Below, piece by piece: positions 379 to 61,930 of a stretch of 64,000 nt of DNA. This DNA comes from Candidatus Anoxymicrobiaceae bacterium (GTDB lineage Bacteria; Actinomycetota; Geothermincolia; Fen-727; Anoxymicrobiaceae): the NCBI GenBank assembly GCA_036845225.1, contig DAIUEJ010000005.1:10808-74807 (forward strand), read 5' to 3'. Positions within the stretch are counted from its first letter, which is position 1, and each line of letters opens with the position of its first letter. Below the pieces are notes generated by a model that searched no databases, was not told the origin of the DNA, and saw nothing but the letters and a program-made list of their open reading frames with translations. A program made the translations under genes and the position numbers.

Positions 379-477
379 ATGCACCACTGGGGTCAGGCAC
401 CGGTGGTGCATTTTTGATGTTTGACCAGGGAAACGTATTTAAATGCACCACCGGTGCCTGACCCCAGTGGTGCATCC
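379..477. repeat. REP-like element: two inverted copies of a 34-nt hairpin unit (9-bp stem atgcaccac/gtggtgcat, loop tggggtcaggcaccg) separated by a 31-nt spacer, between the convergent gdh and nadE 3' ends
   Basis: Direct reading: 379-412 gatgcaccactggggtcaggcaccggtggtgcat is the reverse complement of 444-477. The loop sequence matches the loops in the inverted repeats flanking the RAYT-like transposase at 21958-22870. Confidence 0.7.
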
Positions 478-4292: not shown

Positions 4293-4306
4293 CCGAATGC
4301 GCCTCC

Positions 4307-4360
4307 GAGGTCAGGCCCCCGTGGTGCATTTTGACATCAGGCTCAGGACCGGTCAGGGAA
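4307..4360. repeat. Degenerate copy of the REP-like element (ggtcaggcccccgtggtgcattttga...gaccggtcagggaa)
   Basis: Aligns with 391-435 (ggtcaggcaccggtggtgcatttttga...gaccagggaa). Confidence 0.5.
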
Positions 4361-4423: not shown

Positions 4424-5242
4424 GTGCCTTCTCGAGTGCCGCCCCGTAGCCCGCGCCGACTGCTCCATGAACAGCCCCCTGCGAGCGCCCTCAGGGCGCG
4501 TGCTACGCGATGCGGGGTCAAGGGCTCCGGGGTCCGGCTCGCACTCGGCGCCCAGCAGTCTTCCCCAGTAATACGGGGTTGTGAGCTCTACTTCCGAGGG
4601 GATGCCGCCTTCGCCTCACCGGGCGTCTACGAATACCTGGAGCAGAACCACATCCTCTACGCCACCAGACTTCCCGCAAACCAGGTACTCTCCAGGGATA
4701 TAGAGCACCTCATGACCAGGCCGGTGGGAAGACCTCCCAAGAGACCAAGGGTTTTCTACCATGACTTCTCCTACCAGGCCACCTCCTGGAGCACGCCCAG
4801 GAGGGTGATTGCGAAGGTGGAGTGGCACGCAGGTGAGCTGTTCCCGAGGGTTGGCTTTATCGTGACCAACATGACCGCGAAAGCCAAGAACGTGGTGAGG
4901 TTCTACAACAAGCGCGGCAACTGCGAGCAGTGGATAAAGGAAGGGAAACGCACCCTTACCTGGACCAGGTTATCCTGCACCAGGTTCTCCTCCAACCAGG
5001 TGAGGCTCGCGCTGTTCGTCCTGGCGTACAACATGGGAAACTTCCTCCGCCGTTTCGCCCTTCCGAGTCAGGTCTCGCACTGGTCGCTATCCAGCATCCA
5101 GCTCAAGCTCATAAAGATTGGAGCAAAGGTGATGAGCCATTCGAGGAGGACGATCTTCCAGATGGCGGAGGTCGCCGTCCCTGAGGCGCTATTCGCCGCT
5201 CTCCTGGAGCGTATACGTTGCCTGGTCGCCGCGCCGACTTGA
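4424..5242 (+). pseudogene. IS1380-family DDE transposase, N-terminally truncated remnant (C-terminal ~215 aa only)
   Basis: Motifs RVIAKVEWHAGELFPRVGFIVTNM...FYNKRGNCEQWIKEGKRTLTWTRLSCTRFSSNQVRLALFVLAYNMGNFLRR match the IS1380-family C-terminus. The N-terminal ~60 residues of the ORF are non-homologous read-through, and no N-terminal transposase half is present. Confidence 0.7.
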
Positions 5243-5641: not shown

Positions 5642-7921
5642 ATGAGCCCCCAACAGCAGAATAGATACTGGATAGTCTGTGTTTCTACCTTCCCGCCGCG
5701 ACAGTGCGGCATCGCCACCTTTACCACTGACCTTACCAATGCTGTTGACAAGATGTTCGAACCGTCGATTAGGTCAAAGATTATTGCGATGAATCGTACT
5801 GAAGTAAGTCATTATTCCTACCCTGACAAAGTAATATCCCAGATATGTCAACCCCGTGAAAAAGACTACGTTGATGCTGCCGACAAGCTCAACCGGCTCG
5901 AAAAGGTAAGACTTGTCAACATCCAACATGAATTCGGGATCTTCGGAGGGGAGAACGGTTCACACATACTTCTCTTTTTAGAAAAACTTCAGAAACCGCT
6001 TGTTGCCACATTACACACAGTTCTTCCCACTCCAGACGAAGGAATGCGCAACGTTGTTCAAGCTATCATGGAGTATTCAAAAGGAATAATCGTTATGACG
6101 CACTACTCAAAGAAGATTCTCGAAAGAGATTACGGGTTGGATCCTAATCGAATTCAAGTTATTCCTCATGGGATCCACCATGTTCCCTATAGAAATACCA
6201 AGAAAGCCAAGTCTGCACTTGGCTTTTCTGGCAAATTGATCCTTTCAACCATTGGATTCCTTAGCCCCGGCAAGGGGATCGAGTACGTGATCGAGGCCTT
6301 GCCGCCGGTAGTACGGAAGTTCCCTAATGTTCGATATCTCGTCGCCGGCATTAGCCATCCTCTTGTTGTGAAACAGGAAGGCGAAAGTTACCGTAATTCT
6401 CTCATAAAGAAAGTTTACGAACTCGGTTTGAGCGAATACGTTCTTTTCGACAACACCTATTATGATCTAAATGACCTTCTAGAGTTCCTATCGGCTACCG
6501 ATATCTATATATCTCCCTCCTTAGATCCAAACCAGACCGTCTCCGGCACTTTGTCTTACGCCCTTGGCAGCGGTCGTCCGGTAATATCCACGGCTTTTGC
6601 CCAGGCCAGAGAGGACATTACTGATGATGTAGGCGTATTAGTTGACTTTAAGAACCCGCAGGCTTTCAGTGATGCCATCATTGAATTGTTGGGCAATGAT
6701 CAGCTTCGTCTGCAAATGGGCAAGAGATCTTATCTACACACAAGACACATGACCTGGCAAAATGTTGCCCTTTCCTACGTGAAATACTTCTCTCAATTTG
6801 TGCCGGAGCTAACCCTGGCACAAAGGGAACTTCCACGCGCAAAGCTTACGCATCTGGCTAAATTGACTGACAACTTCGGCATTATTCAGTTTGCCGAGTT
6901 TGCCGAGCCGGATCTTTCCTCTGGATATACCTTGGACGATAATGCCCGGGCTTTGGTTGTTGCCGCGCTCGATTATGAACAACACAGAACCTCTTCTTCA
7001 CTAAGTCTCGTCTCCATCTACCTCGACTTTCTTTATCGGGTAGCCAAACCCGATGGTTATTTCGATAACTATGTCAATCCAAACCACACTATTGACGAAC
7101 AGAGGAATAGCCGTGAATACTCAGAAGATGCCAGCGCCAGGGGACTATATGCGCTTGCCGTGGTCTCAACTACCAAACAAATCCCCGGACGCTTGAGAAA
7201 AAAGGCCCATTACTTGTTTGAGCAGAGTTTCCGGAAAGACATTGCTTTCTCCTCACCTCGTGCTATCGCTTCTTATATCAAGGCCCTCGCAAGTTTGCTT
7301 TCGAGATGGGAGGATGCAAGAACGCTTGCTGCACTAAAACACAACTGTGAAAAACTCTTGGCTCTATACGAGAAGAATCACTCACAGGACTGGGAGTGGT
7401 TCGAGCCTTATCTGACGTATTCAAATGCTCTCATGCCAGAAGCTCTTCTACACGGATGCAGAATAACCGGTGCGAGAAAATATTTCGAAGTGTCTGAAAA
7501 AACCCTCAGCTTCTTGATTAAGCATACCTTCAATGACAGCATGTACATCCCCATAGGCCAAGACGGCTGGTTTGTAAGGGGAGAGACGAGACAGTATTTT
7601 GACCAACAGCCCGAGGATGTTGCTGCTACCGTAGTAGCTCTCAACGCGATGTTTCGGGTAACGAACGAGGAGCATTACAGGGAATTGGCATACAAAGCAT
7701 TCAACTGGTTCCTGGGAGATAATATGCTTGGGCAGGTTGTCTATGATCACACCACCGGAGGATGTCATGATGGGCTTGGGAAAAAGTCCATTAACTTGAA
7801 TCAGGGAGCTGAATCTACCATTTCTTGCCTTTTGGCCCGTTTTTCATTCGACTGCTCAAAGTCAACTAAAAATTCCCTAGTTACAAACAATCATCGTCTC
7901 CCAATCACCCGGTTAGCATAA
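5642..7921 (+). CDS. Bifunctional-architecture protein: N-terminal GT4 (group 1) glycosyltransferase plus C-terminal (alpha/alpha)6 six-hairpin glycosidase-like domain
   Basis: 759 aa. N-terminal WIVCVSTFPPRQCGIATFTTDL and the Glycos_transf_1 region (GKGIEYVIEAL...). The C-terminal half has repeated helical-hairpin signatures (DNARALVVAALD, GLYALAVV, NQGAES). Confidence 0.6.
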   Translation: MSPQQQNRYWIVCVSTFPPRQCGIATFTTDLTNAVDKMFEPSIRSKIIAMNRTEVSHYSYPDKVISQICQPREKDYVDAADKLNRLEKVRLVNIQHEFGIFGGENGSHILLFLEKLQKPLVATLHTVLPTPDEGMRNVVQAIMEYSKGIIVMTHYSKKILERDYGLDPNRIQVIPHGIHHVPYRNTKKAKSALGFSGKLILSTIGFLSPGKGIEYVIEALPPVVRKFPNVRYLVAGISHPLVVKQEGESYRNSLIKKVYELGLSEYVLFDNTYYDLNDLLEFLSATDIYISPSLDPNQTVSGTLSYALGSGRPVISTAFAQAREDITDDVGVLVDFKNPQAFSDAIIELLGNDQLRLQMGKRSYLHTRHMTWQNVALSYVKYFSQFVPELTLAQRELPRAKLTHLAKLTDNFGIIQFAEFAEPDLSSGYTLDDNARALVVAALDYEQHRTSSSLSLVSIYLDFLYRVAKPDGYFDNYVNPNHTIDEQRNSREYSEDASARGLYALAVVSTTKQIPGRLRKKAHYLFEQSFRKDIAFSSPRAIASYIKALASLLSRWEDARTLAALKHNCEKLLALYEKNHSQDWEWFEPYLTYSNALMPEALLHGCRITGARKYFEVSEKTLSFLIKHTFNDSMYIPIGQDGWFVRGETRQYFDQQPEDVAATVVALNAMFRVTNEEHYRELAYKAFNWFLGDNMLGQVVYDHTTGGCHDGLGKKSINLNQGAESTISCLLARFSFDCSKSTKNSLVTNNHRLPITRLA

Positions 7922-7931
7922 AGGGTTAGCT

Positions 7932-8966
7932 ATGCGCATTGCGATGCTCTCTCCGATTGCTTGGCGCACGCCGCCGCAACATTACGGCCCGTGGGAAAGC
8001 GTGGTCTCCCTTTTGACCGAGGGGCTGGTCTCGCGCGGCTATGATGTTACCCTCTTTGCGACCGGTGATTCGCAAACAAGCGGCAAGCTCCATGCCGTTT
8101 GCGCGCGGGGCTATGAAGAAGACCTCTCCATTATGCCAAAAGTATGGGAGGGCCTGCACATTTCGGAACTCTTCGAGCATGCTGAAGATTTCGATATTAT
8201 CCATAACAATTTTGACTTTCTACCTCTGACATACACCGGCCTTACCACCACCCCGGTCGTTACTACTATTCACGGCTTTTCATCGCCCGGGATTTTGCCG
8301 GTTTACAAGAAATACAACGGCAAGGTGTTCTATGTTTCCATCAGCGATGCCGACCGGTCGCCGGATCTGGACTATATCAAAACCATCCATCACGGCATAG
8401 ATATAAAGCAGTTTGATTTTCAGCCTGAACCGGACGATTATCTGCTCTTTTTCGGGCGCATTCACCATGACAAGGGTGCCAGAGAGGCCATTGAAATTGC
8501 CAGGGCTTGCAATAAAAAGCTGATATTGGCGGGAATCATCCAGGATGAAGCCTACTATCACCAGCACATCGAACCGCACCTGGACAACGACAATGCGGTT
8601 TATGTCGGCAGCACCGGGCCGGTTCAGCGCAACCGGCTGCTTGGCAAGGCATGCGCGCTTCTGCATCCCATAAATTTCAATGAGCCTTTCGGCCTGGCCG
8701 TTATCGAGTCCATGGCCTGCGGCACTCCTGTAATCGCCTTTAACAGGGGTAGCATGCCCGAACTTATAGAAAACGGCAAGAACGGTCTTCTCGTAAAAAC
8801 AGTGGATGAGGCAATAGGGGCTGTTGCACGCATAAAAGATATTGACCGGGTATGCTGCCGCCGCCGTGTTGAACAGCATTTCACGGTCGATCGTATGGTT
8901 GAAGAATATATTCAGGTCTATGAAACGGTTCTCGAAAAAACGAAAAGAGAGGACCACCGACACTGA
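7932..8966 (+). CDS. GT4 family glycosyltransferase (group 1)
   Basis: 344 aa: MRIAMLSPIAW...EPFGLAVIESMACGTPVIAFNRGSMPELIENGKNGLLV, the canonical GT4 C-terminal domain. Confidence 0.8.
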   Translation: MRIAMLSPIAWRTPPQHYGPWESVVSLLTEGLVSRGYDVTLFATGDSQTSGKLHAVCARGYEEDLSIMPKVWEGLHISELFEHAEDFDIIHNNFDFLPLTYTGLTTTPVVTTIHGFSSPGILPVYKKYNGKVFYVSISDADRSPDLDYIKTIHHGIDIKQFDFQPEPDDYLLFFGRIHHDKGAREAIEIARACNKKLILAGIIQDEAYYHQHIEPHLDNDNAVYVGSTGPVQRNRLLGKACALLHPINFNEPFGLAVIESMACGTPVIAFNRGSMPELIENGKNGLLVKTVDEAIGAVARIKDIDRVCCRRRVEQHFTVDRMVEEYIQVYETVLEKTKREDHRH

Positions 8967-8968
8967 CT

Positions 8969-9910
8969 ATGACTACTCAATATCCCATTATAAAACGTTA
9001 TAAAATAAATCCCATTCTCACAAAAGATGATGTCCCCTACCCTGTAGCCACGGTCCACAATGCCGGCATAGTCAGGCATGGCGGCCGCTACATTATGCTG
9101 TTCAGGTCGCACCGTTACAACGGACGCTCCATCATCGGCAGGGCCGACAGCGATGATGGTTTTTCCTTCACTGTCCATCCCAAACCCTTTCTCATACCTG
9201 CAAAGGACAACATGTTTGCAGAATATGAAGAGTTCGGAGTCGAGGACCTGAGAATCTGCCCGGTAGAGGACGACTACCTGCTTACCTACAGCGCGTATTC
9301 CCGTCACGGCGTTCGGACTGCCCTTGCGCGCACCAGAGATTTTGAAAAAGTTGAACGCATTGCGCTTATAACCCAGGCCGACCTTCGCAACGTCGTCATT
9401 TTCCCTGTAAAGTTCGGTGGCAGGTATGCGCGTCTTGACCGGCCACATTCCGAAATTTCACCCTGGTCTATCTGGATTTCCTATTCCCCCGACCTGGTTC
9501 ACTGGGGTGATTCACGGGTGATTATGAAGCCGGTTCCCTATCATTGGGATGGAATGAAAATCGGTCCCGGCGCACCGCCCTTCAAGACCGACAAGGGATG
9601 GCTGCATATTTACCATGGGGTCTTTATGACCATGGCTGGGGCGGTATATCGCCTTGGTGCGGCCCTGCATGACCTTAATGATCCGGCAGAAATCATCGGG
9701 GTTTCCGATCAGTGGATACTGCAGCCCGAGGATCCCTGGGAGGTAAGCGGCTATGTGCCCAATGTTGTTTTTAGCTGCGGCGCTGTTCCTGAAGACGACG
9801 GTACGGTAAAAATATACTGGGGCGGTGCTGATACGGTTATGTGTGCCGGTACGGCAGTGATTGATGACCTTGTACAATTATGTCTTACAAATACCAGGCC
9901 GGCGCTGTAA
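8969..9910 (+). CDS. GH130 family glycoside hydrolase / beta-mannoside phosphorylase-like
   Basis: 313 aa with a GH130 five-bladed propeller profile (ATVHNAGIV, LLTYSAYS, KGWLHIYHGV, NVVFSCGAV...IYWGGADTVMCAGTA). Confidence 0.8.
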   Translation: MTTQYPIIKRYKINPILTKDDVPYPVATVHNAGIVRHGGRYIMLFRSHRYNGRSIIGRADSDDGFSFTVHPKPFLIPAKDNMFAEYEEFGVEDLRICPVEDDYLLTYSAYSRHGVRTALARTRDFEKVERIALITQADLRNVVIFPVKFGGRYARLDRPHSEISPWSIWISYSPDLVHWGDSRVIMKPVPYHWDGMKIGPGAPPFKTDKGWLHIYHGVFMTMAGAVYRLGAALHDLNDPAEIIGVSDQWILQPEDPWEVSGYVPNVVFSCGAVPEDDGTVKIYWGGADTVMCAGTAVIDDLVQLCLTNTRPAL

Positions 9911-10283
9911 AAAAGGTTAAGAGGACCTTGCCAAGAGCAACCTTCTTGGCGTACTCGCTCCGCTCCCTCTCGAGCTCGTCAGGCCCGAGGAGCGTCATGC
10001 ACCAGGCACCCTCGCGATCGGAGCCATCACAAGCAGCGTTGTCGCAACGATCGCGATCGCATAGTGTGCATTCTCACGTAACTGAACACTGATTCTCATC
10101 TTGCTTGAGCACTTCCGGAATTAGAGGATTCGAACCCTCTCCTGTCGTTTTACCCCGATCAATCACTTCGAGGCCAAGACCCTTGTTGCATTTCGATCTC
10201 ATGCTGAAAGAGCCCAGCGGTAAGGCATAACGCTGGACTAGATTGCGCATCCAGTCTTGAAAGTGAATATCGACTGGGGCTCC

Positions 10284-10334
10284 CCCCGGCCCCCCTGAGT
10301 CGAGGGTTCGAATCCCTCCAGCTCCACCACCAAA
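10284..10334 (+). repeat. Partial, inverted copy of the tRNA-Ala 3' half (acceptor/T-arm plus CCA plus 4 nt), forming a 39-bp perfect inverted repeat with the adjacent tRNA-Ala gene
   Basis: 10296-10334 gagtcgagggttcgaatccctccagctccaccaccaaat is the exact reverse complement of 10363-10400. The upstream ggggctcc mimics a tRNA 5' end, but no D-arm or anticodon arm is present. Confidence 0.55.
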
Positions 10335-10365
10335 TATGAAGGGTGGTCAGGAAGAGTGAAGGATT

Positions 10366-10443
10366 TGGTGGTGGAGCTGGAGGGATTCGAACCCTCGACT
10401 TCTACCCTGCCAAGGTAGCGCTCTCCCCCTGAGCTACAGCCCC
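10366..10443 (-). tRNA. tRNA-Ala (anticodon GGC), G3:U70 present, CCA encoded
   Basis: Minus strand reads GGGGCUGUAGCUCAGGGGGAGAGCGCUACCUUGGCAGGGUAGAAGUCGAGGGUUCGAAUCCCUCCAGCUCCACCA. Clean cloverleaf with anticodon loop UUGGCAG. Confidence 0.85.
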
Positions 10444-10494
10444 ACACGGGTGCAAAAGATGCGAGTGTAATGATAACCGTACCTCAGGAGCCGC

Positions 10495-10896
10495 TCAAGA
10501 GCGCCCGGCGGCGCCCGGCTCGCCGGCGTGCTCGTCCCACTCGACTATCGGAACATTGCCCCAGAGGCGCTCGAGGTTGTAGAACTCGCGGTCTTCGTCG
10601 AGGAATATGTGGACGACCACGTCGATATAGTCAAGGAGGATCCAGCGACCGAAGCGTACCCCTTCTCGGCGGACCGGCTTCACTCCGCTCTCCCTCAGCT
10701 CCTCCTCCACCGCGTCCTGAAGTCGCTTGACCTGTCGCTCGTTCCGGCCGCTCGCGATGACGAAGTAGTCCGTGAGCCCGAGCGTATCCCTCATGTCCAT
10801 GATGCGGACGTCGGTTGCTTTCTTGTCGTCTGCCGCCCTCGCGGCAGCGATTGCCAACTGCTCAGCTGTCAGCAACTGATCTGCTCCAGCCTTCAA
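10495..10896 (-). CDS. rsfS: Ribosomal silencing factor RsfS (Iojap family)
   Basis: 133 aa; DYFVIASGRNERQVKRL...WILLDYIDVVVHIF is the RsfS signature. Confidence 0.85.
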   Translation of the reverse strand: MKAGADQLLTAEQLAIAAARAADDKKATDVRIMDMRDTLGLTDYFVIASGRNERQVKRLQDAVEEELRESGVKPVRREGVRFGRWILLDYIDVVVHIFLDEDREFYNLERLWGNVPIVEWDEHAGEPGAAGRS

Positions 10897-10950
10897 ACTC
10901 CCTCGCTTACCGTACCGTGCAAGAAAAAGGTTTGACCCCTATTTTGCAGG

Positions 10951-19805: not shown

Positions 19806-21968
19806 ATGAACTATCGCGGCCTACTTTCTCGCAGGGGCGGGCCCGGCCACGAACAGGGCTACCGTGCGAGGGGCGACATCAGCCACCTCTTGTTCGTGAC
19901 CGCGCGGCCCGGCATACAGCTCCTCTGGACCATCCTCGTGGTGGCCACCCTTGCCTATACGCTCATCAGCAGCGGCCCGAAGTATCCCGGCGTGGTGGTC
20001 CTCATGATGGCGACCTTCGCGCTGGTAATCCTCGGCAACCATTTCTTCCCGTTCGACGAATACCGGCCCGTGCTGTTCTTCTTCCTCATGGCCGCCTCTT
20101 TGGCCCTGACCTCGTCCATCGTGTTCCTGACCGGCAACCGGAACAGCCTGCTGGGCTTCCTCTTCTTCGCGGTACCGATCTTCGCATCCGCTTACTACGG
20201 CTATCCAGGCACGCTCCTGATGTCCCTCCTGACCGGGTTCGCCCGTTACATCCCGTTCATGACGGGTGGGGTCTCGGGACTGCAGCAGCTCGCGCTCGCC
20301 CTGTCCGCGGCGACCTACGTGTTCATCGGCATGATGTCCTGCTACGTGGTCGAGGGCGAGAAGATGTACGCGAGGGAGTCGAACGAGTACCGGCACCTGC
20401 TGGAGCTCTCGCGTCACAAGGAGCGCGATGTATCGCGCATCTACAACCTGAGCAGGCGGTTCTCGTATACGCTCGACCTCGACACGATCCTGAAGACGAC
20501 GGCCGCCCTCGCCCGGCAGATGCTCGCCTCCGAAAGCGCGCTGGTGTTCCTCATGGAGGGTGGCAGGCCTGTCCTCAAGGCCGCGCTCGGGCTCCTGCCG
20601 TTCACTGACATGGCCTCCGTTTCGGTCCCCGTTGAGAGCGCCTGGTTCCAGCGGCTGGCCGCCGGCGACGCTGTCATCGAGGAGAAGGCCACCCTCGGCT
20701 GGCTGCCTCTCACCCCCGAATCCGCGGGCAAGAAGCACAACATCGCCGCGGTCCCGCTTTTCACGGGCGGGGACGTGACCGGCTACCTCCTATGCCTCTC
20801 GCCGGCCGCGAGGTCTTTCAGGGAGTCAAACCTGGAGATCCTTTCGACGATCGCGAGCCAGGCTGCGGTGGCGGTCGAGAAAGCACAGCTCTACGCCGAG
20901 ACCCTCGATGACAAGACCAAGGTCGAGACTATCCTGAGCGCCTTGCGGGACGGCCTCCTGCTGACCGACACCCGGGGCAGGCTGGTCGAGGCCAACCCGG
21001 TCGCGGCGAGGATGCTAGGACTCGAGACGGATCCTGACGGCACCCGCCTGCAGGAGGTGCTCGCCACGGTCGTCGAGGATTGCGACCTCGGCCACCTCAC
21101 CCTGAACGAGGCGGTCGAGGCCGCGCTGGATGGGCGCACCGTCTTCGGTGAGATGGTCCTCTCGGGCGAGACCCACATGACCGTGCAGGCCCACTTCATC
21201 CCGCTCCGCGACCAGCTCTCCAACGTCTCGGGCGTTGTACTGGTCCTGCATGACATCACCGAGCTCAAAAGGGTCGACGAGATGAAGTCCAATTTCGTCA
21301 CCAACGTCTCGCACGAGCTGCGCACGACTCTCACCAGCATCTCGGGTTTCGTGAGCCTGCTTCTCGCCGGACGTGCGGGGGCGCTGTCTGCCAACCAGGA
21401 GAAGTACCTCGACGTGGTGAAGCAGCAGGCTTCGAACCTCACCAGGATGATCGAGGACCTCCTTGACCTCTCCAGGCTGCAGGCGAGCCGCAGCAGGGCA
21501 GGCGCGCAGCGCTCCGAGCTCGTCGACCTCGCCGAACTAGCGGCCAGGCAGTTGGCCGAAGCGGCGAACGACGGCTCGATCGATGTCCGGCTCAACATCA
21601 GCGAAGACCTCCCGCCGGTGGACGCCGACCCGGCCCGCCTTTCGCAGGTCCTCATCAACATCATGGAGAACGCGATCAAGTTCACCCCGCCTGGCGGGCT
21701 GGTGGAAGTGGGGGCCATGCTCAACGGTTCATTCGTCCAGGTGAAGGTGTCTGACACCGGCGCGGGCATCTCGCATTCGGCGCTGCCCCACATCTTTGAC
21801 AGGTTCTTCCAGGCGCACGGCGGCGACTCCGCGGACCAGGGGGGCTTCGGGCTGGGGCTCGCGATATCGCGTGAGATCATCGAGCTTCACGGCGGCAGGA
21901 TCTGGTGCGAGAGCGACCCGGGGCGTGGCTCGACTTTCTACTTCACAGTCCCCATCTATGCAAAATAG
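19806..21968 (+). CDS. Sensor histidine kinase: multi-TM N-terminal domain, GAF, PAS, HisKA, HATPase_c
   Basis: 720 aa; H-box DEMKSNFVTNVSHELRTTL and ATPase N/G boxes (NIMENAIKFT; DTGAGIS; GGFGLGLAISREI). Confidence 0.85.
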   Translation: MNYRGLLSRRGGPGHEQGYRARGDISHLLFVTARPGIQLLWTILVVATLAYTLISSGPKYPGVVVLMMATFALVILGNHFFPFDEYRPVLFFFLMAASLALTSSIVFLTGNRNSLLGFLFFAVPIFASAYYGYPGTLLMSLLTGFARYIPFMTGGVSGLQQLALALSAATYVFIGMMSCYVVEGEKMYARESNEYRHLLELSRHKERDVSRIYNLSRRFSYTLDLDTILKTTAALARQMLASESALVFLMEGGRPVLKAALGLLPFTDMASVSVPVESAWFQRLAAGDAVIEEKATLGWLPLTPESAGKKHNIAAVPLFTGGDVTGYLLCLSPAARSFRESNLEILSTIASQAAVAVEKAQLYAETLDDKTKVETILSALRDGLLLTDTRGRLVEANPVAARMLGLETDPDGTRLQEVLATVVEDCDLGHLTLNEAVEAALDGRTVFGEMVLSGETHMTVQAHFIPLRDQLSNVSGVVLVLHDITELKRVDEMKSNFVTNVSHELRTTLTSISGFVSLLLAGRAGALSANQEKYLDVVKQQASNLTRMIEDLLDLSRLQASRSRAGAQRSELVDLAELAARQLAEAANDGSIDVRLNISEDLPPVDADPARLSQVLINIMENAIKFTPPGGLVEVGAMLNGSFVQVKVSDTGAGISHSALPHIFDRFFQAHGGDSADQGGFGLGLAISREIIELHGGRIWCESDPGRGSTFYFTVPIYAK

Positions 21969-22870
21969 GGACAGGCACCGTTTTGCATCAGCAACATATT
22001 TCTTGCACCCTACTTGATATGCTTGTACTGCTAGGGCATAATATTGTTCAAATGCGCCAGCCACGACTGCAAGCCTCGGACGCCCTGCATCATGTCTTCA
22101 CACGAGGCAACAATAAGCAAACCATCTTCCGTGAGGCAGGTGACAAGGTGTACTTCTTGAACCTCCTGTCCTCAGTTATCTCAAGATACGCTTGGATTTG
22201 TCACTCATACTGCCTCATGGACAACCATTATCACCTTCTCCTTGAGACACCGAGTGGCTTCCTTTCTGAAGGAATGCACGTCATCAACGGCGCCTACACC
22301 ACAAAGTTCAACAGCAAGTACGGGTGTTCAGGGCATGTACTGCAAGGGCGCTATCACTCGCCGCTGGTGGAGCAGGAATCTCACTTCCTTGAACTACTGA
22401 GATACATCGCCTTGAACCCTGTGAAGGATGGATTTGTCCTGCATCCAGAAGACTGGCGATGGAGCTGTTATAGAGCGCTTGCCGGGATAGAACCTTTACC
22501 TGCCTTCCTTTCCACCCAGCGTGCCCACGGGGTTTTCGACCAGGACACAACCAACGCCAGACGACTTTATTCCGATTTTGTCCTTGAGCGGCTTCCGGAA
22601 GCACTGGAGCGGGCAAGGGGAAGGCCTTCACTCTCGATGATCTTCGAGTGCTGCCAAGACACTGACCGGAGTGCAGCTGCCATCGTTACAGCTTATGCCA
22701 AACACCGATACAGCATGACCGAGATTGCCCGGTACCTCAGAATCAGTTGCGCAACAGTCAGCAGGGTCATTTCAAAAGCGGATCAAGCAGACCTTGATTG
22801 GGAATTCAGGATTTAGGAGATCCCGCTTCATGTTAACAATGCAAAATGGTGCCTGTCCCTATTTTGCAGG
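21958..22870 (+). mobile_element. ~0.9 kb low-GC insertion carrying a RAYT/IS200-like Y1 transposase gene bounded by ~36-39 bp imperfect inverted repeats, each containing a hairpin (tgcaaaa-[tagggacaggcaccg]-ttttgca)
   Basis: Left 21960-21996 gcaaaatagggacaggcaccgttttgcatcagcaaca; right 22830-22868 atgttaacaatgcaaaatggtgcctgtccctattttgca (reverse complement). The inverted repeats abut the stop codons of the two convergent host genes (histidine kinase and HD-GYP). AT content is higher than in flanking DNA. Confidence 0.7.
22052..22816 (+). CDS. REP-associated/IS200-like Y1 (HUH) tyrosine transposase with C-terminal DnaA-C-like HTH
   Basis: ALHHVFTRGNNKQTIF...YCLMDNHYHLLLE (HuH motif)...RYIALNPVKDGFV (Tyr region)...MTEIARYLRISCATVSRVISK (HTH). 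The ATG at 22052 is chosen; the ORF upstream of it is junk. Confidence 0.7.
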   Translation: MRQPRLQASDALHHVFTRGNNKQTIFREAGDKVYFLNLLSSVISRYAWICHSYCLMDNHYHLLLETPSGFLSEGMHVINGAYTTKFNSKYGCSGHVLQGRYHSPLVEQESHFLELLRYIALNPVKDGFVLHPEDWRWSCYRALAGIEPLPAFLSTQRAHGVFDQDTTNARRLYSDFVLERLPEALERARGRPSLSMIFECCQDTDRSAAAIVTAYAKHRYSMTEIARYLRISCATVSRVISKADQADLDWEFRI

Positions 22871-22875
22871 GTTTG

Positions 22876-24981
22876 TTAGACCATGCCAGGAAGGCGCCGG
22901 GTCGGGGCCACCTCTTCCTGCCTCGCAAACCCGGTGTTCGTCAGCTCTTCCTCAGCGACCGCCGCCATGAACGCTTTTACGACCACCGGGTCGAACTGCG
23001 TCCCGGCGTTGAGCTCCAGTTCCCTGACGGCCTCGGCGACGGGCAATGCCTTGCGGTAAGGCCGGTCCGACATCATCGCCTCGAAAGAGTCAGCCACCGC
23101 GAGTATCCTCGCTCCCAGCGGGATATGCTCGCCCGCGAGGCCGTCCGGATACCCCTTGCCGTCAAACCGCTCGTGGTGGTGCAGGATGATCTCCCGGGGC
23201 GCCTGCAGGAAAGTCACGGGCTCAATGATGGAGTCGCCGAGTTGCGGATGGGTCTTGACGTGCACGAACTCCTCCTCCGAGAGGGCGCCCGGCTTGTTCA
23301 GGATCTTTCTCGCGATTCCGATCTTCCCGATGTCGTGGAGGGCCGCCGCGTACTTCACGTTGCGGCACTCCCACTCCGACAGCTCGAGCTTGCGCGCGAT
23401 CGCCATGGCGTAGTCCGTTACACGCTCGGAGTGGCCGTAGGTGTAGGGGTCCTTGACCTCGATGGCCCTGGCGAGCGCCTTGACCGTCGAGAAGTAGCTC
23501 ATCTCCAGGTCCTCGTACAGGGACGCGTTCTCGAGCGCCACCGCCGCCTGGCCCGCGATGCCGGTCACCATGTTCAGGTCATCGCTCTCGAACTCGTCCC
23601 CCTCCTTGGAGGAGAAGAGCACGACCATGCCGAGCAGGTTCTCGCGCGAGAAGATCGGCACCAGCACGACGGAGCGCGTCAGGGTGTCTTCGATGCGCCC
23701 GCGCGGGATGAACGGCGAGAGCTGCGGCTCGCAGATGGCCACCTGGTGGTTGAACAGGGACTCGACGTCCTCGTCGGTGAGGTCCGCCGGCTGCACGCCT
23801 TCGCCCAGCTCCATCTCCCAGTCCGAGTCGGGGAAGACGCCGAAAGTGGCCGTCGGATAGAAGCGGCCGCTTTCGGTGACGTAGATGTACACGCTGCACT
23901 TGCCGACCTCGCAGACGTCGGCGGTGATCTGGACCAGGCGGGAGAGCAGTACGTCGATGTCCAGCGTGGAGGTGACCAGCCTCGCGACCTCCAGGAGCGC
24001 CATGGTCTCTTTCAGCTTCTGCTGCTCGCTCCCGTGGAGGCGCGCGTTCTCCATCGCGGCGGCGACCTTGTTGGAGAACCTCACCGCCAGGTTGACCATC
24101 TCCTGGGTGAACATCTGGGGGCGCTCGACGTTGTCGATGAGCATCATCCCGACGTTGCGGTCGCGGACCATCAGCGGCGTGATGAGAACGACTTTCGTCT
24201 TCATCTTCTTCATCAGCGAAGACATCGCCGGCATGGTCCGCGGATACCCCTCCACCACCACGGCTTCGCCGTCGTGGACGAGCTGCTTGATGAGGACCTC
24301 GTCGAGGTTGAAGCCGCCCTCTCCGAACACCCTCTCGTGGTCGAAATTGGAGGCCTCGACGTGCAGTTCGTTCGTGAGCAGGTCCCTTGTGATGAACGCG
24401 CACCTGCCGGCGTCGACCAGCTCGATGCACTTCTTGATGGAGGTGAGCATCAGCGTGGTGAAATCGAGGGTGGCCGCCAGGTTGCTCGGGAACCTGTCTA
24501 TGTCCTTCTGGTAGGCGTGGTAGAACTTTATGACCTCGTCCCTGGTCTGCGTGAACGACTGCGCCCGGATGTTCTCCGCCTGCCCGAGCAGGTCATCGAG
24601 GACGAGAGAACACTGGAAGGCGGCCGTCGGGCTCGCCTCACCCTGCTCCACCATGTCCTTCACCACTGCGATGAGCGCCGTCTTTACCGCGACCGGCACG
24701 CACAGGACGTCCTTCAGGGAGTATCCGTTCTTCGCATGCGAGTAGCTCTGGAAAGTCTCGTTGCCGAGGAAATCCGTGGTGTCGCCGTCGGAGATGGCGC
24801 CCTTGAGCGAGTCGAGGTAGTTGATGAAATACTTCTTGCGGGTCAGCTTCATGAAGGCGTAGAACGAGGACGATGGCGTGTCGTGCTCGGGTATCTTCGC
24901 GAGGACGTCCGCCCGCCTCCTTGAGTGCACGTCGAGCGCCAGTGCCCTGCCTTCTTTGTACTCCGATGAGGATGCCGTCAT
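22876..24981 (-). CDS. c-di-GMP phosphodiesterase-like protein: GAF-GAF-HD-GYP
   Basis: 701 aa; two GAF regions followed by an HD-GYP domain (AAALHDIGKIG...HHHERFDGKGYPDGL). Confidence 0.8.
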   Translation of the reverse strand: MTASSSEYKEGRALALDVHSRRRADVLAKIPEHDTPSSSFYAFMKLTRKKYFINYLDSLKGAISDGDTTDFLGNETFQSYSHAKNGYSLKDVLCVPVAVKTALIAVVKDMVEQGEASPTAAFQCSLVLDDLLGQAENIRAQSFTQTRDEVIKFYHAYQKDIDRFPSNLAATLDFTTLMLTSIKKCIELVDAGRCAFITRDLLTNELHVEASNFDHERVFGEGGFNLDEVLIKQLVHDGEAVVVEGYPRTMPAMSSLMKKMKTKVVLITPLMVRDRNVGMMLIDNVERPQMFTQEMVNLAVRFSNKVAAAMENARLHGSEQQKLKETMALLEVARLVTSTLDIDVLLSRLVQITADVCEVGKCSVYIYVTESGRFYPTATFGVFPDSDWEMELGEGVQPADLTDEDVESLFNHQVAICEPQLSPFIPRGRIEDTLTRSVVLVPIFSRENLLGMVVLFSSKEGDEFESDDLNMVTGIAGQAAVALENASLYEDLEMSYFSTVKALARAIEVKDPYTYGHSERVTDYAMAIARKLELSEWECRNVKYAAALHDIGKIGIARKILNKPGALSEEEFVHVKTHPQLGDSIIEPVTFLQAPREIILHHHERFDGKGYPDGLAGEHIPLGARILAVADSFEAMMSDRPYRKALPVAEAVRELELNAGTQFDPVVVKAFMAAVAEEELTNTGFARQEEVAPTRRLPGMV

Positions 24982-28689: not shown

Positions 28690-28810
28690 CAAGATCTTCT
28701 CCCATCCGGACTGTTACCGTCGGCCCCGGAATTTCGCCGGGTCAGCTCTTTCGAGCTCGCGGGCTTTACCGCCGGTCGGGGATTTCACCCTGTCCCGAAG
28801 ACTATATATT
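28690..28810 (-). promoter_or_regulatory. FMN riboswitch (RFN element) in the rib operon leader
   Basis: Minus strand reads CUUCGGGACAGGGUGAAAUCCCCGACCGGCGGUAAAGCCCGCGAGC...GGCGAAAUUCCGGGGCCGACGGUAACAGUCCGGAUGGGAGAAG, matching the conserved RFN cores (GGGUGAAAUUCCC, GACCGGCGGUA, AGUCCGGAUGGGAGA). Confidence 0.85.
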
Positions 28811-36414: not shown

Positions 36415-36438
36415 AGAAAAAGGACCTGACCCCGAAAA
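36415..36438. repeat. REP-like unit (gaaaaaggacctgaccccgaaaag) between the hdrBC-like start and glnA terminator
   Basis: Inverted 18/18 match to 61798-61815. Confidence 0.5.
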
Positions 36439-61770: not shown

Positions 61771-61794
61771 GTCGGCCTCCTTGACTTAACACTA

Positions 61795-61856
61795 GGGGTC
61801 AGGTCCTTTTTCTTAAGTCCCGGGACTAAACTTTTTGGGGTCAGGCCCCTTTTTGT
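61795..61856. repeat. Cluster of REP-like units upstream of the GRE gene: ggggtcaggtcc-ttttt / palindrome agtcccgggact / ggggtcaggcccc-ttttt
   Basis: Shares an 18-nt identity (gaaaaaggacctgacccc, inverted) with 36415-36438 and the GGGGTCAGG core with the elements at 379-477 and 4307-4360. Confidence 0.55.
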
Positions 61857-61930
61857 TTAGTCGCAGGGATAATCATAGTACGGTTGGGCGCGAGGTGATA
61901 ATGACGGATGACGTATTCCCGTCGAGCGCC

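Follow-up and report, generated by a model that had tools for sequence, protein, structure and literature searches.

The DNA stretch analyzed here, a 64-kb window of Candidatus Anoxymicrobiaceae, in all likelihood contains a TIRtron, i.e., a single-copy TIRYT gene of TnpA_Y1 subclass 2.1 which lies between terminal inverted repeats (TIRs) of 39 nt, has its own promoter and would act in trans on dispersed hairpins. The encoded enzyme is a RAYT-like Y1/HUH protein with an HUH fold. RAYT-like genes flanked by TIRs were named TIRYTs and the respective units TIRtrons by Di Nocera, De Gregorio and Rocco in 2013 (PMC3733652). The class is therefore already described; what this locus contributes is the presentation of its motif in a hairpin loop, the REPIN-like partners and the insertion into a junction of stop codons for which empty sites were found. 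The following features define the element.

21958..21997, plus strand: left TIR with a hairpin at 21958-21988 (stem arm ATGCAAAA, loop TAGGGACAGGCACCG, stem arm TTTTGCAT)
22014..22042, plus strand: sigma-70-like promoter, TTGATA-17 nt-CATAAT, 10/12 consensus positions (predicted function)
22052..22816, plus strand: TIRYT gene, 254 aa (open reading frame (ORF) list, Pfam and structural model)
22830..22868, minus strand: right TIR with a hairpin at 22840-22868 (stem arm TGCAAAA, loop TAGGGACAGGCACCA, stem arm TTTTGCA; 7-bp stem)

Structure and composition of the element

The segment from 21958 to 22868 has a length of 0.91 kb and a GC content of 0.507, compared with 0.639 and 0.626 in the 3 kb on either side, and the GC content at third codon positions (GC3) of the TIRYT gene amounts to 0.59 vs. 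0.88 and 0.91 in the neighboring genes. These values agree with an earlier note on this DNA, which had described an AT-richer segment of about 0.9 kb. The two arms of the inverted repeat (21959-21997 and 22830-22868) comprise 39 nt each and are 87% complementary, and both terminal hairpins carry the loop TAGGGACAGGCACC. Repeats of about 36-39 bp with 7-bp stems and 15-nt loops had been proposed for both ends; arm length and right stem are in line with this, while the left hairpin has a stem of 8 bp (ATGCAAAA/TTTTGCAT) around its 15-nt loop. By itself, the left hairpin does not exceed shuffled sequence in stability (z = -1.4).

The element is located between two convergent genes encoding a histidine kinase and an HD-GYP protein. 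It had been placed exactly between their stop codons; the junction is correct, and the stops are positioned slightly differently, with the TAG of the kinase gene (21966-21968) inside the loop of the left hairpin and the HD-GYP stop (22876-22878, minus strand) 7 nt beyond the right hairpin. One TIRYT copy is present in the window, and the TIRYT-bearing contigs examined contain at most one each.

The TIRYT protein and its promoter

The ORF at 22052-22816 (plus strand) encodes 254 aa, not the 255 given before; the HUH motif (H59-Y60-H61), the catalytic-type tyrosine (Y118) and the helix-turn-helix (HTH) tail proposed at the same time were all found. A longer reading of 303 aa starting with GTG at 21905 is an artifact, as the homologs begin at the same MRQ/MRE position and the promoter lies at 22014-22042. 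The Y1/HUH nuclease domain spans approximately residues 1-150 and is followed by a linker and a C-terminal three-helix HTH (204-247). H59, H61, Y118, N122, and P123 are invariant across 30 aligned homologs.

Assignment to the RAYT-like Y1/HUH transposases, as suggested earlier, was confirmed by profile and structure searches. Pfam PF01797 (Y1_Tnp) matched residues 13-120 above threshold (34.7 bits vs. a cut-off of 23, E 2.2e-8), and a profile search of PDB sequences matched the E. coli TnpA_REP structure 4ER8 across the Y motif. The AlphaFold2 model of the 254-aa protein (pLDDT 90.7), in which three C-terminal helices occupy 204-247, has 4ER8 as its top structural match (E 9.6e-7, TM 0.76 on the target), with the transposases of ISDra2, IS608 and IS200 next in rank; 4ER8, 2XMA, 2VJV, and 2F4F were all matched with a probability of 1.00. 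NCBIfam NF047646 (REP_Tyr_transpos) reached 68.3 bits and thereby remained below its cut-off of 80. With this score and no GTAG at the hairpin foot, the gene and its repeats are not a classical pair of RAYT and GTAG-type repetitive extragenic palindromic (REP) sequence.

For the C-terminal tail, the profile search of PDB sequences yielded the DeoR HTH 7BHY (E 0.007), and Pfam gave sub-threshold matches to HTH_38, HTH_28 (E 0.012) and HTH_23 (E 0.013). The tail had been called DnaA_C-like; Pfam showed no Bac_DnaA_C match in the TIRYT protein at E<=1. According to Quentin, Siguier, Chandler and Fichant (2018), most TIRYTs belong to TnpA_Y1 subclass 2.1, which occurred in 14.9% of their strains and whose defining feature is an HTH of the Bac_DnaA_C, HTH_23 or HTH_28 type at the C-terminus (PMC6006769). 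The predicted tail corresponds to the “short version” described in the same work (PMC6006769). Because such an HTH defines the subclass, it is typical and not, as had been assumed, an unusual extension of the transposase; hundreds of homologs of 250-290 aa share it.

The promoter sits inside the left end of the element, and its end is only 9 nt away from the ATG. As no Shine-Dalgarno sequence is visible before this ATG, the TIRYT mRNA is probably near-leaderless, with a predicted start at about 22049. The same placement recurs at the related loci L002 and L112.

A family motif shared across phyla

The protein database contained 490 relatives at E<=1e-5, mostly of 250-290 aa, many of which carry the JGI name “REP element-mobilizing transposase RayT”. 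In addition, a scan of species-representative genomes yielded at least 594 relatives (the homologs listed are 32-52% identical), from which 80 loci were kept. They derive from Nitrospirota, Acidobacteriota, several proteobacterial classes, Thermodesulfobacteriota, Parcubacteria, Bipolaricaulota, Thermotogae and others. Accumulibacter, a genus in which one of the first TIRYT examples was described (PMC3733652), is represented in the set by L082.

For each locus the upstream flank was aligned against the reverse complement of the downstream flank. Most of the 80 loci are bracketed by an inverted repeat which starts with GGGGTCAGGTCTTG and reaches inward to about 25-35 nt from the start codon. 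GGGGTCAG was present in forward orientation within 200 nt upstream at 44 of the 80 loci and in inverted orientation downstream at 29, compared with none of the 80 on either side for the reversed control word. Distant copies of GGGGTCAG were about 2.8-fold more common than the control. The TIRs of the window gene read AGGGACAG and agree with the common TIRYT motif GGGGWSAS (PMC3733652) at seven of eight positions; the form typical of the window clade is (A/G)GGG(A/T)CAGGCACC. Since the motif flanks homologs in many phyla, the loop of the window hairpins is a clade variant of this cross-phylum motif and not the private signature for which it had been taken. At one gammaproteobacterial locus (L072), iteron-like arrays of GGGGTCA/GGTCA were observed on both sides of the gene (9900-10000 and 10870-10940) besides the terminal GGGGTCAGGTCTTG.

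The idea that the stems differ while the loop is conserved was restricted by these comparisons. Among close relatives (45-72% identity) a hairpin was found again; it bears the motif within its loop or beside it, and its stems differ in sequence yet remain complementary, as given below by locus.

L002: 5′ arm AAACGCAAA, 3′ arm TTTGCGTTT
L092 and L098: 5′ arm ACGCAAxAAAG, 3′ arm CTTTxTTGCGT
L225: 5′ arm TGCATAAAA, 3′ arm TTTTATGCA
L226: 5′ arm GCAAAAAGGGG, 3′ arm CCCCTTTTTGC
L112 and the doublet of the window: 5′ arm TGCACCAC, 3′ arm GTGGTGCA

At the 80 distant loci, stems of at least 6 bp enclose the motif five times, compared with 5.1 expected from shuffled flanks, so that a hairpin at the motif was rejected as a rule for the whole family. 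The embedding of the motif in a hairpin is a trait of the window clade, a group of Geothermincolia-like actinobacteria, not of the family.

Dispersed hairpins and cognate gene pairs

Searching the window for TRGGGWCAGGCACCG with at most two mismatches gave five matches vs. 0.64 expected, a number attained by none of 100 shuffles. With a looser search and inspection eight copies of the motif were counted, all eight of them intergenic. Two hairpin families are distinguished in the following, type A, which has the same sequence as the two ends of the TIRtron in the window, and type B, the type of the doublet at 379-477. Apart from the TIRs, the copies in the window are:

379..477, no strand assigned: REPIN-like doublet of two inverted B-type hairpins (ATGCACCAC-TGGGGTCAGGCACCG-GTGGTGCAT) with a spacer of about 37 nt
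4297..4329, plus strand: degenerate single B-type hairpin (ATGCGCCTCC-GAGGTCAGGCCCC-CGTGGTGCAT)
36422..36433, minus strand: motif remnant GGGGTCAGGTCC without hairpin
61783..61863, plus strand: two tandem hairpins with the stems ACTTAA.../...TTAAGT and GACTAAAC.../...GTTTAGTC and the motifs GGGGTCAGGTCC and GGGGTCAGGCCCC

The doublet is situated between two converging ORF ends and contains an exact GGGGTCAG. Its inverted hairpins with 9-bp stems around the shared loop, already recognized before, fold with -52.5 kcal/mol (z = -12.5). From the degenerate relatives listed by the earlier note, the hairpins at 4297-4329 and 61783-61863 were recovered, and the copy at 36422-36433 turned out to be a remnant that does not fold (z = +0.7). 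The single hairpin at 4297 lies in a divergent intergenic region beside a truncated DDE transposase gene, and the tandem hairpins are likewise located in a divergent (5′) intergenic region. The doublet seems to be nested in a degenerate copy (358-490) of another hairpin, GACTAAACTTTT...GAAACGTTTAG, of which an intact version with GGGGTCAGGCCCC in its loop is present at 61824-61863; one hairpin element may have inserted into the loop of another. With the gathering thresholds of Rfam, the window as a whole yielded only an FMN riboswitch and a tRNA, and the hairpins match no known RNA family.

A metagenome scan with the pattern TGCAN{3,4}TRGGGWCAGGCMCCN{4,5}TGCA, for which we estimated a few chance matches, retrieved at least 117 stretches. 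After merging and removal of duplicates by flanking sequence, these comprise at least 178 hairpins at no fewer than 79 distinct sites, in accordance with the proposal that the terminal hairpins belong to dispersed repeat families with inverted doublets. Among the matches listed, 48 sites are on contigs of window-like GC content (>=0.55) and 31 on contigs with a GC content of 0.39-0.50; contigs of the window's own organism are represented as well (L110 with 99.6%, L203 with 99.4% and L142 with 97% identity). Types A and B dominate the high-GC set. The matches listed also include 18 simple inverted (+-) doublets, 14 of them on high-GC contigs, and two clusters of three hairpins. The 14 high-GC doublets are about 90 nt long and have co-varying arms and spacers of 30-36 nt. 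These spacers do not match the inner ends of the TIRtron, so that descent of the doublets from the present TIRtron by deletion was ruled out. Nearly identical arms and a constant spacer length were observed in the doublets of L104-L208, e.g., at 8705-8795 and 10635-10724 of L113, and one spacer is common to L113 (two copies) and L166 only.

A second TIRYT gene was found on L112 (317-1146). It encodes a protein of 251 aa with 43.6% identity to the window protein, has its own promoter beside the ATG and is flanked by type B hairpins. Its stop codon is the TGA of CCTGACCCC within the right hairpin, so that the transposase gene takes its stop from the repeat. Type A thus flanks the window gene and type B the L112 gene, a pairing of one hairpin type with one gene that resembles RAYT/REP systems, and the repeat is cognate to the gene as had been suspected.

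The insertion site and its evolution

Orthologs of the HD-GYP gene bear the names Candidatus Anoxymicrobiaceae or Geothermincolia (Actinomycetota), and some of them preserve the junction in its empty state. In L221 and L222, with an ortholog of 81% identity, the TGA of the kinase gene abuts the HD-GYP stop in TGATCA with zero intergenic bases; in the 78% relatives L223 and L224 the two stops overlap in CTAG. Because the stops of these relatives abut or overlap, the TIRtron sits in a junction that formerly had no spare DNA. The C-terminus of the kinase now reads ...YAK* on the TAG of the repeat instead of ...YA*. In L219 (5613-5649) and L220 (89% HD-GYP ortholog) a different TIR, GGGGTCAGGTCTTGAATCTTGC, follows 15 nt past the HD-GYP stop, where the contig ends; apparently, elements of more than one type make use of this junction.

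Proximity to stop codons is not confined to this locus. For ORFs of at least 100 codons ending at most 60 nt from an element end on high-GC contigs, 21 of the 54 non-negative gaps measured 0-3 nt, compared with a uniform expectation of 3.5 (p = 9e-12), and seven further ORFs on such contigs stop on the TAG of the loop. The upstream ORF likewise ends in or at the repeat in L002, L225, and L226. No consistent target-site duplication was detected across the flanks of the doublets, and the A-rich 5′ and T-rich 3′ flanks considered as a candidate are simply stem extensions. It is tentatively suggested, and on balance rather doubtful, that the hairpin elements (the TIRtron and the doublets of about 90 nt) are targeted to abutting or overlapping convergent stops, at palindromes such as TGATCA and CTAG. 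In that case the same junctions would be colonized repeatedly by different TIRYT lineages, and site-selective single-strand transposition would be aimed at gene 3′ ends and supply replacement stops, which is more than mere intergenic survival.

A second junction was compared as well. P0004, P0008, and P0015 share one position, the FlpD/Fer4-acsE junction of a Wood-Ljungdahl cluster, and this synteny at first pointed to long vertical inheritance. The TIRYTs of L002 (3001-3765) and L092 (10001-10783) are only 45% identical, compared with 90% for the adjacent Pterin_bind proteins. Between close strains the TIRtron diverges 3-5 times more than its flanks: L001 differs from the window by 2.96% in the TIRtron and 0.57-0.98% in the flanks, and L203 by 1.43 and about 0.33%, respectively. 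On account of the contrast in identity and the faster divergence, long vertical inheritance was downgraded. In five lineages the GC3 of the TIRYT genes is 0.54-0.66 vs. 0.82-0.91 in neighboring genes. The 45/90% contrast, the fast divergence and the low GC3 fit either a repeated colonization of favored junctions or a fast evolution in place.

Proposed mechanism and alternative explanations

By analogy to TnpA_REP and IS608/ISDra2, the hairpins would extrude while the DNA is single-stranded and would be bound by the HUH/Y1 domain, with Tyr118 cutting and rejoining the strand. The C-terminal HTH might add binding of the motif, repress the adjacent promoter, or both. Acting in trans, the enzyme could spread short non-coding copies, namely single hairpins and inverted doublets of about 90 nt which are comparable to REPINs, and these copies would come to rest hard against gene stop codons. 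The gene-carrying copy would have entered a convergent junction without intergenic DNA, such that the kinase gene now ends on the TAG of the repeat. Several points weigh against this interpretation as a trans-acting TIRtron. Cleavage, the single-stranded substrate and mobilization in trans are carried over to the TIRYTs from other systems; none of the HTH matches of the tail attains a Pfam threshold; the 79 or more hairpin sites stem from several organisms and not from one genome; and the spacers of the doublets are mostly unrelated in sequence, a poor fit to the copying of a doublet as one unit. Moreover, recognition of hairpins cannot be a general rule, since the distant loci show no excess of them. 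The literature search found no experimental study of the class and met the term TIRYT only in PMC3733652 and PMC6006769, and a search for the motif string returned unrelated papers only.

A possible, if less probable, explanation is an autonomous insertion sequence that moves horizontally: the whole 0.91-kb unit would transpose into convergent junctions, and the short hairpins would be its miniature inverted-repeat transposable elements rather than clients of a resident helper gene. The empty sites in relatives with 78-81% identical neighbors agree with this, as do the low GC3 of the TIRYT genes in all five lineages, the 45%-identical TIRYTs next to 90%-identical proteins at the FlpD/acsE junction and the occupation of one junction by different elements, the TIR after the HD-GYP gene in L219 and L220 being of the GGGGTCAGGTCTTG type. 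An insertion sequence of this kind is more difficult to reconcile with the single copy in 64 kb and at most one per TIRYT-bearing contig, and just one of the 80 loci comes from a genome represented twice; the accelerated evolution of the locus could, furthermore, explain the difference between 45 and 90% without any re-insertion.

It is unlikely, in our view, that the hairpins are chiefly 3′-end elements selected by the host (mRNA stabilizers, terminators or insulators), with the TIRYT gene merely lying between them or maintaining them and its link to them being secondary. Such a role would account for the extreme nearness of element ends to stop codons on both sides and for the intergenic position of every window copy, and REPs mostly lie downstream of coding regions (PMC3733652). 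On the other hand, the scan found no terminator-like sites, the stems being AT-rich and not followed by a T-run; each of the two hairpin types flanks its own TIRYT gene, the motif accompanies homologs across phyla with or without a hairpin, and the copies at 4297 and 61783 lie in divergent (5′) regions. A further reading, which we consider highly improbable, takes the GGCAC...TGCA part of the repeats for a sigma-54 (-24/-12) promoter or an operator and the protein mainly for an HTH transcription factor. The sigma-54 consensus is TGGCACG-N4-TTGCW, and the B-type hairpin (AGGCACC-GGTG-GTGCA) indeed has GG and GC at the appropriate spacing. A sigma-54 promoter was rejected because the A-type repeats (AGGCACC-GTT-TTGCA) are one base short; in addition, the wider family motif GGGGTCAGGTCTTG lacks GGCAC, the catalytic residues (HUH and Tyr) show no variation and the promoter adjoining the ATG is sigma-70-like.

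Further features of the window

Further observations concern other parts of the window. A low-GC island at 5642-9910 (GC content 0.46-0.52 vs. 0.62) encodes two GT4-type glycosyltransferases and a GH130 mannoside phosphorylase-like protein; it is flanked by a 5′-truncated DDE_Tnp_1_4 gene (4424-5242) and a tRNA-Ala gene (10369-10443, minus strand). A permuted tmRNA predicted by ARAGORN at 9904-10461 (minus strand), which overlaps this tRNA-Ala gene, is probably a false positive, as Rfam finds no tmRNA there. The FMN riboswitch at 28690-28806 (minus strand, 110.6 bits) is an ordinary one upstream of the riboflavin operon with ribD, ribE, ribBA, and ribH (about 25.0-28.6 kb).

Comparison with known systems

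The element shares several features with the published TIRYTs and TIRtrons: a RAYT-like Y1/HUH protein which exceeds the RAYTs in length and ends in an HTH, a gene between TIRs with a GGGGWSAS-type motif at a fixed short distance, and usually one gene copy per genome. In some genomes moderately abundant TIR families occur scattered as singles, dimers and groups (PMC3733652), as the copies described here do. It differs in its TIRs, which read AGGGACAG and deviate from the motif at one of eight positions, in the motif being placed in a hairpin loop with co-varying stems within the window clade, and in the insertion exactly at a stop/stop junction with empty sites recovered. In the survey of Quentin et al., the surroundings of subclass 2.1 genes yielded no REP-like sequences (PMC6006769), whereas here hairpin and REPIN-like families are evident.

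RAYT/TnpA_REP systems (E. coli, 4ER8; Pseudomonas REPINs) represent the closest solved fold and the closest sequence relative. In both cases the gene is single-copy and stands between inverted copies of a repeat that is dispersed, every gene has a repeat family of its own, doublets fold into long hairpins and the repeats lie at gene 3′ ends. In contrast to REPs, the window repeats have neither a GTAG- or CGTC-tagged palindrome nor a GTAG at the hairpin foot, their conserved bases are found in a large 15-nt loop and not in a conserved stem, and the protein, which stays below the REP_Tyr_transpos cut-off, has about 90 extra residues including the HTH. With the IS200/IS605 family (IS608, ISDra2, IS200) the element shares the HUH/Y1 fold, presumably single-strand cutting and rejoining on hairpin DNA, and the lack of a visible target-site duplication. 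The IS200-like organization assumed earlier does not apply: in IS200/IS605 elements the subterminal hairpins differ between the left and right ends and TIRs are absent, TnpA has about 130-150 aa and no HTH, a tnpB gene is often present and there are multiple copies, compared with symmetric TIRs, 254 aa with an HTH and one copy in the window.

The central idea of the earlier note is largely borne out, and the known picture of RAYT-like systems is unchanged by these findings. The TIRYTs (subclass 2.1) are among the most common Y1 groups outside IS200, and the locus offers a compact test case with two gene/hairpin pairs, distinguishable hairpins, REPIN-like doublets, a filled and an empty junction and a loop-borne motif. 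Assays of binding and cleavage can be designed on this basis, and it can be asked whether insertion aims at stop-codon junctions.

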